From assembly GCA_016287755.1 (NCBI GenBank), contig JAEEWT010000013.1:48177-112176 (forward strand): a stretch of 64,000 bases of DNA. The letters run 5' to 3'. The notes beneath the pieces are model-generated. The model made no database searches and had not been told where the DNA came from. It worked only from the letters and a program-made list of their open reading frames with translations. Shown here one piece after another: positions 13,110 to 63,460 of this stretch (position 1 is its first letter; each line of letters starts with the position of its first letter). This stretch comes from Prevotella sp. (lineage in GTDB: Bacteria; Bacteroidota; Bacteroidia; Bacteroidales; Bacteroidaceae). The position numbers were made by a program, and so were the translations under genes.

Positions 13110-13198
13110 CGTACCTTTGGCTTTGCCGAATGTACTCACGTTCGGAAAAACTCAAATTTTGTTTGGTTTTTCGCTTACTTATTCGTACCTTTGGCTTC
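13110..13198 (+). repeat. Promoter-associated hairpin repeat, copy B (1 unit)
   Basis: CGTACCTTTGGCTT at 13110 and 13184 (74-bp period) enclosing TTTGCCGAATGTACTCACGTTCG and a GAAAAAC...GTTTTTC hairpin; ATG follows at 13199. Confidence 0.78.
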
Positions 13199-15055
13199 AT
13201 GAAACATTTCCACCCACTTCAAACCGACATTGCACGACCAAAGCAGTTCAATGATCCGTTTGATTACGAGCCACACCCGCTGAGTATCTTAGCGGTAGAA
13301 GAGGTGCAGCAGTATATCATGGAGCACCCTGAGATTAAGGAGGATGCTGATCAAGGGAAGATGTTTGGGGTGTTGGTTGTTTCTCTTCCGAGGAAGGACG
13401 AAGGAGAAAGGAGGAAGGAGATTTCTTCTGAGATACAGAATGAGGGTGCGGGAATTGGATTCTTGGCGGCGTATAGCGGATTGCTGGCTGGCAGGAACGA
13501 CTGGGAGTGGTTTGTGCCACCCGTGTTCGATGCGCAGGATCCTGATGGGTACTTCAAGGTGCATGAGCAGAAGATAACCGAGATGAACCACGAAGTGGAG
13601 TTGTTAGAAAAGGATTTGGATCATCTCTATCACCAGTCCGACTACCTGAAGATGCTTCGTACCACGGAGAACCTGCTCAGTGAACACGAGAAGAAGATGA
13701 AGACCGCTAAGGTGCTGCGCGACATGAAGCGTCTGCAACGCAACATCTCCCCTGAAGAGAATGCGGAGCTAATCCGAGAGAGTCAGTTCATGAAGGCCGA
13801 GATGCGGCGCATCAAGAAGCGCTGTGAGGAACTGGAGAAGCCGTGGAAGGAAAAGGAGCAATCACTGACAGACAGAATTGAACAACTGAAGAAACAACGC
13901 AAGGAGGCATCTGACGACCTACAGCGCTGGCTGTTCTCACAATACAAGATGAGGAACGCGCAGGGTGAGACCAAAGACCTCATCGAGATCTTCAACGACT
14001 ATAACGGTCAGCTACCCCCAGCGGGGTCGGGTGACTGCTGTGCACCGAAACTCCTGCAGTATGCTTTTGAGAACAACCTCCAACCCCTTTGCATGGCCGA
14101 ATTCTGGTGGGGCGCATCGCCCAAGATGGAGATCCGTCATCACCTGAACTATTATCCCGCCTGCAGAGGGAAGTGCCTCCCGATTTTGGGGTGGATGTTA
14201 TCGAGGAGGAAGGACGAAGGAGGAAGGACGAAGGAGATTACTTCTGAGATACAGGATTCGAAGGATTCAGCACAAGACTCATATACACAGGACATTTCTC
14301 CTTCCTCCCTCCTCCTTCCTCCTTCCTCGAAAAATATCCTCTTCGAAGACTCCCACCTCCTCGTGCTGAACAAACCCGCTGGGATGCTGAGTGTGCCGGG
14401 GAAGACTGGGGATGTGAGTGTGGAGAGCATGATGAGGGATTATCTGCATGATGATATGAATCCTATCATCGTGCACCGACTCGATATGGATACCTCAGGA
14501 CTGATGGTCGTTGCCAAGACTAAATGGACTTACACGGAGCTGCAAAAGCAGTTCCTGGAGCATCAGGTAGAGAAAACATACGTGGCTCTATTAGAGCACA
14601 TGCCCGAGGGAAAACCGCTCAAAGGCACCATCTCCCTACCCCTCCGACCGGATATTTATGACCGTCCGCGACAGCTGGTGGATTGGGAGAATGGGAAGGA
14701 GGCGATCACAGAATATTGGATTTCGAGGAAGGACGAAGGAGGAGGGAGGAAGGAGATTACTTCTGAGATACAGGATACAAAGGAGTCTGTTCAGGACACA
14801 GGCACCCAGTACATTTCTCCTTCCTCCTTCGTCCTTCCTCCTTCCTCGATAAGAATAACCCTCCGTCCCCGCACAGGGCGGACCCACCAACTGCGCGTGC
14901 ACTGCGCCCACCAGGAAGGATTGGGGGTGCCGATTGTGGGAGATGCGCTGTATGGACATCGGGCCGACCGCCTTTATCTGCATGCCGAAACACTGTCGTT
15001 CATTCATCCTAAGACGGGTGAACGACTCACCTTCACGGCACCCGCACCATTCTAA
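13199..15055 (+). CDS. rluA: RluA family pseudouridine synthase with long N-terminal domain, carrying three in-frame repeat insertions
   Basis: Start refined to ATG 13199 (MKHFHPL). Motifs GKMFGVLVV, AGSGDCCAPKLLQYA, NKPAGMLSVPG, VHRLDMDTSG, TGRTHQLRVH, RLYLHA. Confidence 0.93.
   Translation: MKHFHPLQTDIARPKQFNDPFDYEPHPLSILAVEEVQQYIMEHPEIKEDADQGKMFGVLVVSLPRKDEGERRKEISSEIQNEGAGIGFLAAYSGLLAGRNDWEWFVPPVFDAQDPDGYFKVHEQKITEMNHEVELLEKDLDHLYHQSDYLKMLRTTENLLSEHEKKMKTAKVLRDMKRLQRNISPEENAELIRESQFMKAEMRRIKKRCEELEKPWKEKEQSLTDRIEQLKKQRKEASDDLQRWLFSQYKMRNAQGETKDLIEIFNDYNGQLPPAGSGDCCAPKLLQYAFENNLQPLCMAEFWWGASPKMEIRHHLNYYPACRGKCLPILGWMLSRRKDEGGRTKEITSEIQDSKDSAQDSYTQDISPSSLLLPPSSKNILFEDSHLLVLNKPAGMLSVPGKTGDVSVESMMRDYLHDDMNPIIVHRLDMDTSGLMVVAKTKWTYTELQKQFLEHQVEKTYVALLEHMPEGKPLKGTISLPLRPDIYDRPRQLVDWENGKEAITEYWISRKDEGGGRKEITSEIQDTKESVQDTGTQYISPSSFVLPPSSIRITLRPRTGRTHQLRVHCAHQEGLGVPIVGDALYGHRADRLYLHAETLSFIHPKTGERLTFTAPAPF
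13389..13438 (+). repeat. Intragenic palindromic element, left arm plus core (rluA copy 1)
   Basis: CGAGGAAGGACGAAGGAGAAAGGAGGAAGGAGATTTCTTCTGAGATACAG, read in frame as PRKDEGERRKEISSEIQ. Confidence 0.85.
14201..14330 (+). repeat. Intragenic palindromic element, complete 130-bp copy (rluA copy 2)
   Basis: TCGAGGAGGAAGGACGAAGG... / ...CCTTCCTCCTTCCTCGA arms with core CTTCTGAGATACAG at 14241; encodes SRRKDEGGRTKEITSEIQ...ISPSSLLLPPSS. Confidence 0.9.
14723..14849 (+). repeat. Intragenic palindromic element, complete 127-bp copy (rluA copy 3)
   Basis: TCGAGGAAGGACGAAGGAGG... / ...CCTTCGTCCTTCCTCCTTCCTCGA with core CTTCTGAGATACAG at 14760; encodes SRKDEGGGRKEITSEIQ...ISPSSFVLPPSS. Confidence 0.9.
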
Positions 15056-40390: not shown

Positions 40391-41323
40391 TTAACTATTA
40401 ACAACTAACCAGGTCATGTAGCCAATAAATATCAGCGTGAGCACCACGCCTTCCCATCTGGCTACCTTGAATTTTGTGTAACAGAACAGCCACAGCAGGA
40501 TAATACCACCCATCATCACACTCAGATCAACGGTGGTGATGCCATGTAGCTGCATGGGCAACACCAATCCTGTTGCGCCCAGAATCATTAGAACGTTGAA
40601 TACATTACTGCCAATCACATTACCGATGGCAATAGCCGAACGCCCTTTCTTGGCCGCCACCACACTGGTAGCCAGTTCTGGCAGGGATGTACCGCAGGCC
40701 ACGATGGTCAGACCGATTACTGCATCGCTCACACCAAGGGAACGGGCAACGGTTGTGGCACCATCCACGAACACATGACTGCCACCTACCAGACAAACAA
40801 GACCAAGGACGATGAGTCCGACAGCCTTCCATGGGTTCATGTCCTCTAACTTCACCACCTCCTGTTGTTCAAGACGACCTGCTTTCGCCATACGGAGGGT
40901 GTAGTACATAAACAGCAGGAACCCGATGAAGAGCAAACCAGCATCAAGTCGTGAGATCTTCCCGTCAAGGCACATCACCGTCAAGGCCACGGCAGCGGCC
41001 ACGGCAAACGGAATATCTTTCCTCACGGTACTTTTACTGATGGTCATCGGCGCAACAATGGCAGTCACACCCACAATCATCAATGTGTTGAACACATTTG
41101 AACCGATGATATTACCTACGGCCATGTCTGAGGTGCCTTTGATGGCAGACATCAGTGACACAAAGAACTCAGGCATCGATGTTCCCATGGCCACTACGGT
41201 CAGACCGATCACTATCTGGGGCACGTTCATACGATGGGCTAATGCCGTGGCACCATCTGTCAGACGGTCTGCTCCCCAGAGCACTAACACGGCTCCCAAA
41301 ATAATAAACACAATGCTTAACAT
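40391..41323 (-). CDS. Calcium/sodium antiporter (YrbG-like)
   Basis: Two alpha repeats GTSMPE..VS / GTSLPELATS and GNIIGSN / GNVIGSN. Confidence 0.93.
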   Translation of the reverse strand: MLSIVFIILGAVLVLWGADRLTDGATALAHRMNVPQIVIGLTVVAMGTSMPEFFVSLMSAIKGTSDMAVGNIIGSNVFNTLMIVGVTAIVAPMTISKSTVRKDIPFAVAAAVALTVMCLDGKISRLDAGLLFIGFLLFMYYTLRMAKAGRLEQQEVVKLEDMNPWKAVGLIVLGLVCLVGGSHVFVDGATTVARSLGVSDAVIGLTIVACGTSLPELATSVVAAKKGRSAIAIGNVIGSNVFNVLMILGATGLVLPMQLHGITTVDLSVMMGGIILLWLFCYTKFKVARWEGVVLTLIFIGYMTWLVVNS

Positions 41324-41326
41324 GGT

Positions 41327-41512
41327 GCAAAGGTACGATTAAGCGAGCACAATACAAAATAAATAAGGATTTATTTTTATTGTCGAGCGTAAGTACCTTC
41401 GGCGGAGCCAAAGTTCGACTAAGCGAGCACAATACAAAATAAATAAGGATTTATTTTTATTGTCGAGCGAAAGTACATTCGGCAAAGCCAGAGTTCGAAT
41501 AAGCGAGCACAA
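41327..41512 (-). repeat. Promoter-associated hairpin repeat, copy D (2 tandem 80-bp units plus partial)
   Basis: A 50-bp identical direct repeat at 41340 and 41420 with a third start at 41500; on the minus strand the last unit ends CGTACCTTTGCACC-ATG of the antiporter. Confidence 0.88.
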
Positions 41513-41585
41513 AAGCAAATAATAATTAGAATTATTATTGCAAGTTTCCACATAATTTTATACCTTTGCAGTGAAAAATCGGAAT

Positions 41586-58983: not shown

Positions 58984-60063
58984 CTACTCCTGCTTATACC
59001 ACAATTGATCACCTATGATCTCCAACGGCATAGGGATATTGTCGGTGAACAGCTGTCCTGTTCCCAAGCCCTGCGGACGTTGGATGTGCGGACCATAGAG
59101 ATAGGCCGTGAGGTGAGCAATGGCATTCAGACCGACATTGCTCTCCAATGCACTGGTAATCCATGAGCCGATATGACGGTCGTTAGCCAGATCAATCCAC
59201 TCCTTCGTACCCGCCATTCCTCCATGGAGAGAGGGCTTCAGAATGATATAGGCAGGTTTGATGATGTCGAGCAACTGACCTTTCGTATAGGAATCGTTCA
59301 CACCGATGAGTTCCTCGTCGAGGGCGATAGGTATCGGCGACTCCCTGCAAAGGAAAGCCATGTCGCCCCACTGTCCCTGACGAATAGGCTGCTCGATGGA
59401 ATGAATATCATACAACGACAACTGCTCCAGTTTCTGCAAGGCATCATCGGGCGAGAAGGCACCATTCGCATCTACCCGCAGCTCAATCTCCCGCCTACTG
59501 TAACGGCTCCTGATCTTCTTGAGCAACTCCAATTCCTGATTGAAATCGATAGCCCCGATCTTCAGCTTGACACAATGGAAGCCCTGCGCCAACTTCTGTT
59601 CAATACGCTCTCGCATCTCTTCAAAAGTACCCATCCAAACAAGTCCGTTAATGGGAATCCCTTCTTCTCCCCTACCGAAGGGAGTGTCGAAAAGCATCGT
59701 GGAACCAACCTGCAGGTTCAAGAGCGCTGTTTCCAGACCGAAGAGCATGGAGGGGTAGTCTTGTGGAGTGTGGAGTGTGGAGTGTGGAGTGAGAATAGTT
59801 CGAGGAAGGAGGAGGGAGGAAGGAGGAAGGAGATTACCAATAGGATTCTCTGAAACAAAGGATTCGCAGAAAGTAGAGAGTTTTTCTGCATAATTGGGGA
59901 TATCGTCGCACGACAGATTCGGTAGGGGCGCACACTCCCCTATGCCCTGCCTACCGTTCTCATCGGTCAGGGTGATAAACCAGGAACGACGGGTGGTGTA
60001 AGTACCACGGGATGTTCCGGCTGGCTGCTTGAAGTGCAGCACTCGTTCTTGTATTTTATACAT
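58984..60063 (-). CDS. menC: o-succinylbenzoate synthase with in-frame repeat insertion
   Basis: GIGECAPLP, INGLVWMG, KLKIG, RVDANG, EQP, ALDEEL, ILKPSLHGG, SALES. Confidence 0.93.
   Translation of the reverse strand: MYKIQERVLHFKQPAGTSRGTYTTRRSWFITLTDENGRQGIGECAPLPNLSCDDIPNYAEKLSTFCESFVSENPIGNLLPPSSLLLPRTILTPHSTLHTPQDYPSMLFGLETALLNLQVGSTMLFDTPFGRGEEGIPINGLVWMGTFEEMRERIEQKLAQGFHCVKLKIGAIDFNQELELLKKIRSRYSRREIELRVDANGAFSPDDALQKLEQLSLYDIHSIEQPIRQGQWGDMAFLCRESPIPIALDEELIGVNDSYTKGQLLDIIKPAYIILKPSLHGGMAGTKEWIDLANDRHIGSWITSALESNVGLNAIAHLTAYLYGPHIQRPQGLGTGQLFTDNIPMPLEIIGDQLWYKQE
59763..59840. repeat. Intragenic chimeric heptamer element in menC
   Basis: (GTGGAGT)4-GAGAATAGT joined to TCGAGGAAGGAGGAGGGAGGAAGGAGGAAGGAGATTAC, the rluA-type arm; encodes GNLLPPSSLLLPRTILTPHSTLHTPQ. 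Confidence 0.85.
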
Positions 60064-60072
60064 AAGTACAGG

Positions 60073-60601
60073 TTTTTAGACAGAAGAACATATTTTTTAG
60101 ACAAAAGAACAAAAGGACATAATTATTAAAACTCTATGGTTTTCGAAAAACACGGTATTTACGTTTGACTTCAATTTTGGGAGAGCCAAAATTAATTAAT
60201 AGACCATCATCAATGTGCGTGGCTGTCAGATAGTTAACCAACTGAACTTCATGGGCTGCCACCAAATTATTTACGGCTTTCAGTTCAACGATTACTCTTT
60301 CATCTACGATTAAGTCCGCCTTGAATTCTCCCACGATTTCTTCATCGTAATAAACATTCATCGGGCACTCGCTTTCATAGAAAATACCGCGTTTGTCCAA
60401 TTCTATCATGAGTGCATTTTTGTAAACAGATTCCAAAAAGCCTGGTCCCAACTGCATTCTTACATGATACGCACTATCTATGATTGTCTTTATTAACTCT
60501 TCTACATCCATCTCTATCATAAATCCTTATGGCTTATATCTTGAACATTTATTATTATGTCCTTTCGTTCTTCTGTCTAAAAAACATGTCCTTTTGTCTT
60601 A
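60073..60601. mobile_element. Inverted-repeat-bounded GxxExxY cassette (candidate mini-element)
   Basis: 34-bp IRs at 60093-60126 and 60551-60584 (31/34 identical) plus partial outer copies, bracketing a single gene. Confidence 0.55.
60134..60520 (-). CDS. GxxExxY protein (PD-(D/E)XK nuclease fold)
   Basis: 128 aa; LGPGFLESVY, KADLIVDERVIVELKAV, QLVNYL, GLLINFG. Confidence 0.93.
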   Translation of the reverse strand: MIEMDVEELIKTIIDSAYHVRMQLGPGFLESVYKNALMIELDKRGIFYESECPMNVYYDEEIVGEFKADLIVDERVIVELKAVNNLVAAHEVQLVNYLTATHIDDGLLINFGSPKIEVKRKYRVFRKP

Positions 60602-61456
60602 CGGCAATATAGGATATTTGTCAAAATCAGGTTTACGCTTCTCCAAGAACGCCTTTCCTCCCTCCTGGGCCTCATCCAGATAGTAGTAAAGCATCGTGGC
60701 GTCGCCTGCCAGTTGCTGAATACCCGCCTGACCGTCGAGCTCGGCATTCAGTCCGGCCTTGATCATACGCAGAGCCAGCGGCGAGCGTTCCATCATGATC
60801 TCCGCCCATTCCACACAGGTGTCCTCCAGCTGGTCTATCGGCACTACCTTGTTCACCATACCCATAGCCTCAGCCTCCTGGGCAGAATACTGTTTGCAGA
60901 GGAACCAGATCTCGCGTGCCTTCTTCTGTCCCACCATCCGTGCCAGGTAGCTGCTGCCGAAGCCCGCATCGAACGAGCCCACCTTCGGTCCGGTCTGTCC
61001 GAACACCGCATTCTCAGAGGCGATGGTCAGGTCGCACACCACATGTAACACATGTCCGCCACCAATGGCATAGCCGTTCACCATGGCAATGACAGGTTTG
61101 GGCAGACGACGGATCTGCATCTGCACATCCAGTACCGAAAGACGCGGCACACCCTCTTCATCCACATAACCGCCACGACCTTTCACATGCATATCACCGC
61201 CAGAGCAGAAAGCATGCTTCACGTCAGCCAGCGTCTTGCCCTCAGGCACCTCGCTCATCGCTCCTGTCAGCAGCACCACACGGATGCGCTGCAACTCGCG
61301 GCATATCGCAAAGGCTTCGCTCAACTCCTGGGTGGTCTTCGGGGTGAACGCATTACGGTAGCGCGGTCGGTTAATGGTAATCTTTGCAATGCCGTTATAC
61401 TCTTCGAAGAGAATCTCCTCGAACTTCCTGATTTCTTTCCATTCCCTGTTTGTCAT
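60599..61456 (-). CDS. menB: 1,4-dihydroxy-2-naphthoyl-CoA synthase
   Basis: [52 protein letters not shown]. Confidence 0.97.
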
Positions 61457-63420: not shown

Positions 63421-63460
63421 AAGTACAGGTTTTTAGACAGAAGAACAAAAGAACATAAAA
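63421..63460. repeat. Orphan copy of the GxxExxY-cassette end
   Basis: AAGTACAGGTTTTTAGACAGAAGAACA (27 nt) is identical to 60064-60090. Confidence 0.8.

Follow-up and report, generated by a model that had tools for sequence, protein, structure and literature searches.

We examined a small nuclease-family gene and the repeats that surround it in the men operon, a set of vitamin K2 synthesis genes, of a rumen Prevotella sp. (GenBank assembly GCA_016287755.1). The window, i.e. the whole stretch of DNA that was analysed, comprises 64,000 nucleotides of contig JAEEWT010000013.1. Within it, 535 bp separate the TAA stop of menB (60599–60601) from the start codon of menC (60061–60063), and one same-strand open reading frame (ORF) lies inside. 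Nearly the whole spacer is taken up by this 128-aa GxxExxY gene and by inverted arms on its two sides; gene and arms together are called the cassette below. The initial annotation of this DNA described a locally AT-rich 128-aa gene filling the menB–menC spacer, and the ORF, the GC content, and the GC content at third codon positions (GC3) all bear this out. The GC profile is 36–40% across the cassette versus 54–59% in menB. By feature, the GC content is 38.0% in the nuclease coding sequence, 27.0% in the arms and spacers, 55.2% in menB, and 51.1% in menC (whole genome, 48.2%), and GC3 is 0.388 in the nuclease gene versus 0.668 in menB and 0.589 in menC.

The arms form a full, ungapped inverted repeat of 52 nt that is 87% complementary (coordinates in Table 1), with 45–47 Watson-Crick pairs per 52 positions across eleven strains. 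Each arm is made of two units set 21 nt apart (direct-repeat families D1 and D4). The cores of the upstream arm are AGACAAAAGGAC (60599–60588) and AGACAGAAGAAC (60578–60567); both units terminate in ..AAAGGACAT, and the menB stop abuts the first of them, overlapping part of the unit. On the gene strand, the cores of the downstream arm are GTTCTTTTGTCT (60110–60099) and GTTCTTCTGTCT (60089–60078). The unit of about 21 nt can be described as a T-run followed by AGACAGAAGAAC and AAAGGACAT, and is also written TTTTTAGACAGAAGAACAAAAGGACAT. For the inner core of the repeat that had been reported previously (60093–60126 against 60551–60584), exactly 31 of the 34 positions match. The partial outer copies reported with it are real and correspond to the second unit of each arm and to a degenerate third unit at 60053–60070. 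The arms have an inverted-repeat score of 30; shuffling the two spacers 2000 times never gave more than 14, and a score of 30 was reached by only one of 3000 random genomic window pairs with the geometry of the cassette. A terminator scan of the cassette gave no match.

The 128-aa protein matches PF13366 (PDDEXK_3; E = 3e-39, 134.5 bits against a cut-off of 22) and TIGR04256 (GxxExxY; E = 1.3e-41, 141.6 bits, cut-off 35). No Pfam family other than PF13366 matched, and neither a GIY-YIG domain (cd10448) nor the HUH/Y1 domain of RAYT proteins was found. Residues G27, E30, Y33, D69, E79, and K81 are invariant in an alignment of sixty sequences that includes the window protein, in which the G27-x-x-E30-x-x-Y33 motif and D69/E79-L-K81 are intact. 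The AlphaFold2 (AF2) model built with a sixty-sequence alignment has a pLDDT of 91.7. Its top match in a Foldseek search of the PDB is Cas4 SSO0001 (4ic1; E = 4e-4, TM-score 0.59), followed by lambda exonuclease, the nuclease domains of AdnAB/AddAB, and MGME1. A sequence search of the PDB returned no meaningful relative (best match Rns, E = 0.02). The protein is a minimal PD-(D/E)XK nuclease, apparently an active one. A phage or defence assignment was dropped, because the PHROGs search gave no match for the protein and PADLOC only a weak one to Cas4b (E = 0.005). The family is very large, with 6264 proteins at E ≤ 1e-20 from the window-protein query. In a survey of the PD-(D/E)XK superfamily, the function of PF13366 is given as ‘unknown’ (PMC3424549), and the searchable literature returned no paper on the context or function of the GxxExxY/PDDEXK_3/IPR026350 family.

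We compared the spacer with the same junction in other members of the genus. The start of menC lies 12–94 nt after menB in twelve of twenty same-genus comparison loci and about 270 nt after it in a thirteenth, in line with the earlier statement that the two genes are usually adjacent. Because so many congeners have menB and menC 12–94 nt apart, the cassette is an insertion, in sense orientation, between these two genes of the men operon. Clean empty sites also exist among relatives. Genome G013, which is among the nearest relatives by menB (89%), has a spacer of 57 nt without a trace of the repeat, and at locus L052 a clean stretch of 17 nt separates menB from menC. Divergence among the empty sites is too great for a target to be defined from them. 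For annotation, this means that GxxExxY genes are inserted elements, which interrupt operons but do not destroy them. In another close relative (G024, locus L008), the ‘empty’ menB–menC spacer reads GGAAAGGTGAAAAAGTGAAAAGGTGAGAAAGTGAAAT, a period-8 array of another word, and may represent, at this same junction, a solo arm from a different cassette family.

Table 1. Features at and near the menB–menC junction, in window coordinates.
Feature	Position	Strand	Basis
menC (o-succinylbenzoate synthase), downstream flank	58984–60063	−	PF13378 (MR_MLE_C), PF21508 (MenC_N), TIGR01927
Third, degenerate outer unit, 78% to reference unit	60053–60070	−	Direct-repeat family D1; overlaps menC start codon 60061–60063
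Downstream arm, 3' of gene, inverted copy of upstream arm	60078–60129	−	Repeat search
GxxExxY/PDDEXK_3 gene, 128 aa, predicted minimal Cas4/RecB-like PD-(D/E)XK fold	60134–60520	−	Family profiles, AF2, Foldseek
Unique 27-nt spacer, upstream arm to GxxExxY start codon	60521–60547	−	Sequence; orthologues have 0–60 nt here
Upstream arm, 5' of GxxExxY gene	60548–60599	−	Inverted-repeat and direct-repeat (family D4) search
menB (1,4-dihydroxy-2-naphthoyl-CoA synthase), upstream flank	60599–61456	−	NF005637 (1.1e-136), TIGR01929 (1.2e-122)
Gene-less solo array of the cassette unit family, upstream of menD	63421–63458	+	blastn; 27 nt identical to 60064–60090

The menB|menC junction is occupied in at least thirteen other distinct Prevotella assemblies. 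All homologues of 65–76% identity that could be placed are found there (L034–L047 and L123), as are several of 54–62% identity (L049, L050, L126, and the copy in G002), and the carriers are all rumen Prevotella assemblies. Pairwise identity of the nuclease rises and falls with that of menB and menC. In the menB tree, the window and the cassette-bearing loci fall into one clade with 98% support, which also has three cassette-free genomes. The dN/dS of the nuclease gene is 0.04–0.14, with dS saturated, and is similar to that of the neighbouring genes. Among orthologues, nuclease GC3 tracks host GC3 and is always 0.16–0.42 lower, a persistent offset that speaks for a long stay under a different codon regime and not for recent arrival.

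An identical nuclease protein is indexed in sixty blocks of the assembly collection. Ten same-species contigs, 98.2–100% identical over 900 nt, keep the spacing with at most one 1-nt indel and a constant number of units, and the cassette is structurally unchanged and in the same place in all twelve same-species assemblies. This sample is biased towards carriers, ten of the eleven public matches having been found via the nuclease protein itself; the only unbiased scan, of metagenomes with the 3' end of menB, returned a single contig, and it has the cassette. Cassettes also decay in place to gene-less arms. At menB|menC the series runs from the full cassette (G002) through an in-frame TGA (G076) and a 34-aa fragment with repeat words (G009) to arm words only (G018), so gene-less arrays can arise where a cassette once stood. 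The cassette is thus old, vertically inherited with the operon through the rumen Prevotella clade, kept by purifying selection, and fixed in the species. The initial annotation had proposed a minimal mobile cassette. A discrete inserted unit of inverted repeat, nuclease, and inverted repeat is indeed present, at this locus and at others. Current activity is contradicted by the shared junction, the host-tracking divergence, the purifying selection, and the constancy in 12/12 strains.

Across twelve orthologous cassettes, the arms are arrays of one to seven copies of one unit, a T-run and then AGACAGAAGAACATAAGAACAT, with a sub-repeat of period 8/9 inside each arm and unit. The unit occurs in variants (AGATAA(A/T)AAGAAC, AGACATAATAAC, and AGACATAGTAAC), and both arms share one variant in each of the twelve. 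In the smallest cassette, that of L034, each side has just one unit, of about 25 nt. In the nuclease tree, the Bacteroidales members fall into well-supported clades. Clade A (97%) contains the window copy and is found at menB|menC only. Clade B (95%), whose members are 70–79% identical to one another, occupies three kinds of site: menB|menC (L049, L050, L126, and the pseudogene L123), menC|menE (L052 and L124), and an unrelated locus (L048). Its arms are of the AGACATA(A/T)TAAC type at all three sites examined (L049/L050, L052, and L048), and in L052 an arm of the cassette provides the stop codon of menC. Related gene-plus-arm units lie at DUF2851|dprA, between a parE/gyrB-like gene and an unknown neighbour, and between an unnamed ORF and an acetyltransferase-like gene. 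A further relative, with a 59%-identical GxxExxY gene, lies between a class II aminoacyl-tRNA synthetase gene and gpsA (L127; G051:C16:125400-127000). Because a related gene with the same repeat unit is found at menC|menE and at unrelated loci, gene and arms have relocated as one unit, rarely, on the time scale of species divergence.

The initial annotation raised the question of whether other GxxExxY genes have inverted repeats around them, and in most cases they do. All six GxxExxY genes of the genome (G000) are flanked by inverted arms, whose word differs from gene to gene (ACGGAAAA, CACAGAAAT, ACGCAGAG, GACCACGGAT, or AATTACCACGAATTA), and all six are co-oriented with both neighbours and wedged between housekeeping genes. 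For 62 of 79 homologues from other genomes, many of them in other phyla, a flanking inverted repeat scored above the 99th percentile of the controls, which were shifted windows in the same loci (cut-off score 12; 0/291 controls above). GACAGGA or ACAGGAT is present in both arms at 24 of the 79 loci versus 2–4 of 294 control windows. Arm ends of the TTTAGACAG type recur from Prevotella to Planctomycetota, Verrucomicrobiota, and Acidobacteriota, and members of the same protein subfamily in other phyla have a related arm motif (TTTAGACAG.. or GACAGGAT). The arm motif follows the protein clade. Neutral DNA would be randomised at 55–60% protein identity, so the arm sequence is under joint selection with the protein. 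Between co-directional neighbours, forty cassettes are in sense and seven in antisense orientation. This gene-plus-repeat design is widespread, and we could not find a description of it in the literature. Downstream of another GxxExxY gene of the genome (G000:C44:65860-66120), an arm (TTTCCGTTATTCCGTTAT..) and some 70 nt of sequence next to it form three tandem copies, repeating about every 100 nt.

Gene-less copies of the arm words are dispersed in some genomes. The word TTAGACNRAAGAAC has sixteen copies in G000 and 0–2 in 77 of 81 genomes of the genus, as does the reversed control pattern (0–2). It is abundant in four of the 81, namely G000 (16), G050 (30), G051 (8), and G065 (5); a cognate GxxExxY gene is present in G000 and G051 and was not found in G050 or G065, which are 85–90% complete assemblies. 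The thirteen gene-less loci of TTAGACNRAAGAAC in G000 are single-orientation arrays and not hairpins, whereas in G050 gene-less hairpins of TTAGACNRAAGAAC words with a short loop lie between genes (L134 and L135). The words of the other paralogues are dispersed as well, e.g. CACAGAAATCACAGAAA with twenty-two exact copies versus about 0 expected. At two loci of G000 (C37:29066-29300, and C4:39270-39620 with 41250-41560), gene-less arms belonging to three different GxxExxY word families sit one inside another (A[E[B]E]A; D..C B..D..C), and the nested C4 structure is duplicated 1.9 kb apart. Within the window, the solo array at 63421–63458 sits between a uridine-kinase-like gene and menD. It could be what remains of a second cassette, or could have arisen by exchange between arrays 3.3 kb apart.

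Two known kinds of resident gene-and-repeat system resemble the cassette. RAYT genes lie between inverted cognate repeats, are single-copy, and are vertically inherited. As in REP/REPIN–RAYT systems, each gene lineage here has its own repeat family, and there are gene-less extragenic copies, some of them hairpin doublets; the gene is flanked by an inverted cognate repeat, and gene-less copies are dispersed (thirteen in G000, hairpins in G050). Bertels & Rainey (2011, PMC3116915) report that REPIN groups lie close to specific RAYT genes. The cassette differs in encoding a 128-aa PD-(D/E)XK nuclease and not a HUH/Y1 transposase, with no known strand-transfer chemistry. Its arms are arrays of 1–7 units with a period-8 sub-repeat and not single REP palindromes, the roughly thirteen gene-less loci of the genome are single-orientation arrays, and gene-less copies can be abundant without a cognate gene (G050). 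The Ssn nucleases offer a second likeness. According to Chenal et al. (2025, PMC11893778), the nuclease gene is small and single-domain and in 42% of homologues has its target repeat on either side, and for SsnA site-specific cleavage of single-stranded DNA (ssDNA) and an effect on transformation were demonstrated. In Ssn/NTS, as in the cassette, the repeat variant follows the protein lineage, the phylum range is wide, and the gene is a resident one and not a transposon. The fold is GIY-YIG in the one and PD-(D/E)XK in the other. NTS/SRM repeats are short hairpins in hundreds of copies, whereas the cassette has phased unit arrays in tens of copies, and Ssn activity has been demonstrated, whereas an activity of GxxExxY is predicted. 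Overall, the cassette shares the architecture and the resident, lineage-specific behaviour of RAYT/REP and Ssn/NTS, and differs from them in its nuclease fold and in having arrays in place of single palindromes.

Like the cassette, insertion sequences and miniature inverted-repeat transposable elements (MITEs) have inverted ends, presence and absence among species, intergenic insertion, nesting, and gene-less derivatives. The sole ORF of the cassette encodes the PD-(D/E)XK protein, with no DDE, HUH, serine, or tyrosine recombinase transposase, and the number of units at the ends varies among orthologues, unlike in insertion sequences or MITEs. We rejected an identity as an insertion sequence, since there is no transposase of a known class, there are no near-identical genomic copies, and no target-site duplication was recognised at the arm ends, against empty sites too diverged to show the target.

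The reading we favour, and consider probable if only by a little, is that of a resident cassette: a Cas4/RecB-like nuclease gene with its cognate repeat arrays, inserted long ago and relocated rarely by host repair. The protein would recognise the phased sub-repeats of its own arrays, with several subunits per arm, and would cut there. A lone PD-(D/E)XK nuclease cuts strands and cannot join them, and for this reason relocation or copying would have to be completed by host recombination and repair and would hence be rare. The system would persist as a resident nuclease with cognate repeats, like RAYT/REP or SsnA/NTS, and not as a jumping transposon. The period-8 sub-repeat, the variable number of units, the variant shared by both arms, and the arm sequence that follows the protein clade match recognition of DNA units by a protein more closely than they do a simple RNA stem. 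We infer that the nuclease acts on the arms. It may also have a part in mobility, the initial annotation having named GxxExxY as the possible mobilising enzyme, and it may spread the gene-less copies.

Several results weigh against this reading. No movement on a short time scale and no empty site within the species was seen in the small, carrier-biased sample. There is no second copy in the genome, where the paralogues are 37–48% identical. By eye, neither a target-site duplication nor a shared target motif was found at the arm ends of thirteen orthologues. At L127, the unit TTCTTAGACAAAAGAACAAAAGGACAT on the two sides of the gene is direct and not inverted, with four to five copies downstream. 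The abundance of TTAGACNRAAGAAC does not always go with the gene. G050 has its thirty copies, some of them hairpins, and its best GxxExxY gene is 45% identical with ACGGACT arms; G065 has five copies and no close GxxExxY gene in its incomplete assembly. In addition, seven of the thirteen gene-less arrays in G000 are within 90 nt of a TAnnTTTG box versus 11.5% of random windows, and given this proximity to promoter boxes part of the dispersed TTAGACNRAAGAAC set may belong to another, promoter-linked repeat family. The searchable literature holds no biochemical data for any member of the GxxExxY family.

An unlikely alternative places the function of the arms in RNA. On this account, the arms form a stem in the men transcript, as in the intervening sequence (IVS) of 23S rRNA, and an RNase III-like cut frees the GxxExxY mRNA and insulates menB and menC. 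The ORF of a 23S IVS lies between complementary ends that form a long stem. The minimum-free-energy and centroid folds of the 566-nt transcript do pair the arms, giving a stem of some 45 bp that encloses the ORF (−157.7 kcal/mol, z = −6.9). Sense orientation inside operons, seen for 6/6 genes in the genome and for 40 versus 7 homologues between co-directional genes, points the same way, and in the species four of the seven non-Watson-Crick positions are sense-strand G:U pairs, one of which two strains have independently made Watson-Crick. Coxiella has a 428-nt IVS with an ORF inside the precursor 23S rRNA (PMC4990558), similar to the cassette in its size of about 0.4–0.5 kb and in its one small sense ORF inside an essential transcription unit. 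The G:U signal does not extend to the family, however: in sixty-five cassettes, sense G:U mismatches number 77 and A:C mismatches 63 (P = 0.27), beside 228 transversion mismatches. Neither the period-8/9 sub-repeat nor a variable number of units is needed for a stem, the arm sequence itself is conserved with the protein clade across phyla beyond its pairing, and the arrays in G051 are direct. The cassette also differs from the 23S IVS in lying in an mRNA spacer and not in rRNA, and in an ORF of nuclease fold and not a four-helix S23p protein.

Two further accounts, each distinctly unlikely in our view, take the gene as a homing-type selfish element or as an ordinary host gene. In the former, the nuclease cuts its recognition sequence where no gene occupies it (a gene-less hairpin of the same words, or the empty menB|menC junction of another strain), repair from an occupied copy brings the gene in, and the arms are the halves of the split target. 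PD-(D/E)XK homing endonucleases exist (I-Bth0305I, at rank 48 in Foldseek), gene-less hairpins of the same words with a short loop are present in G050, arms of three families are nested at C37:29066-29300 and C4:39270-39620, and the menB|menC junction is occupied in two separate menB clades. The empty junctions of relatives, however, have no hairpin that could be the target and no conserved target is visible, and G000 has thirteen gene-less arrays, in a single orientation and not hairpins, for one occupied copy. Homing genes typically go through a cycle of gain, decay, and loss, unlike the long-term purifying selection seen here, and the nuclease tree and identities agree with those of the host genes, without a sign of lateral sweeps. 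In both respects, a phylogeny that follows menB/menC and empty sites with no visible conserved target, the gene differs from a free-standing homing endonuclease gene. If the gene is instead a domesticated one (serving repair, control of DNA uptake, or regulation), its arrays would be operator or autoregulatory sites or a by-product, and its absence elsewhere would be due to gene loss only. Vertical inheritance, the dN/dS values, and fixation in the species all agree with this; one cassette adjoins dprA, and the resident nuclease SsnA of Neisseria, flanked by repeats it cuts, modulates transformation (PMC11893778). It accounts poorly for close gene-plus-arm units in three or more different spacers among members of one protein clade, for the spread of the subfamily and its arm motif over many phyla, for six divergent paralogues in one genome that are all wedged between housekeeping genes, and for the persistently atypical GC3. 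That low-complexity DNA happened to place short-period words face to face around a small gene has a negligible probability. Word repeats are common in this genome (at least 95 GTGGAGTG and 48 AGGAAGGA matches, and promoter-linked arrays); we rejected coincidence on the shuffle, genomic, and homologue controls described above.

If the resident-cassette reading extends to the family, GxxExxY proteins would be sequence-specific nucleases that read phased arrays of an 8–9-nt sub-repeat. They would form a pan-prokaryotic class of resident gene-plus-repeat systems that move only rarely, a PD-(D/E)XK counterpart of RAYT/REPIN and Ssn/NTS, mostly in sense orientation in operons, shedding gene-less arrays or hairpins and retargetable by co-evolution of protein and unit. 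We put this generalisation forward tentatively, as possible and no better than doubtful. If it is true, the men-operon series would be a natural experiment for the recognition code: at a single junction it offers arms of 1–7 units and four unit variants, along with two relocations and a decay series. The locus makes the family testable, since it supplies a protein of 128 aa together with a defined unit, about 21 nt long, that the protein would be expected to bind or cut. A protein that reads its flanking arrays would assign a function to the thousands of proteins annotated as ‘GxxExxY protein’ and would account for a class of word repeats between genes, and possibly in frame within them, in Bacteroidales and other phyla. 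Small programmable DNA-recognition modules would then be possible, as with the Ssn family for ssDNA.

The other short palindromes of the window had been linked, speculatively, to the spread of this gene, and that link finds no support: they are built from GTGGAGTG and AGGAAGGA words, which make up the arms of none of the six GxxExxY genes. These words belong to an abundant hairpin family with no GxxExxY gene bearing such arms. A 20-mer of the GTGGAGTG word has at least 95 matches in G000, mostly in plus/minus pairs about 90 nt apart (e.g. C7:6343/6433, C30:6244/6334, and C38:28795/28884), and an 18-mer of the AGGAAGGA word has forty-eight. Some copies lie inside genes. The 641-aa ORF at window positions 13130–15055 (+), an RluA-type pseudouridine synthase (PF00849), has two complete in-frame palindromic elements of about 130 nt with AGGAAGGA-word arms (14204–14332 and 14723–14849) and a partial third near the N-terminus. 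In menC, an array of GTGGAGTG words at 59757–59835 is fused to a TCTCCTTCCTCC..CTCGAA arm and is in frame, being read as ‘LLPPSSLLLPRTILTPHSTLHTPQ’. MenC is 359 aa or 380 aa long among strains; this 21-aa difference segregates within the species and may lie in the array.

Two promoter-like sequences lie in the cassette. A sigma-70 scan matched TAGACA-17-AATAAT within an arm, which we gave no weight, as the promoter consensus of Bacteroidota differs from the sigma-70 type scanned. In the nuclease gene, the codons of the invariant INFG residues (ATT AAT TTT GGC) include, on the sense strand at 60166–60173, TAATTTTG, which matches the Bacteroidetes -7 box TAnnTTTG. This box is about 100 nt upstream of menC and might serve as an internal promoter for the downstream gene.

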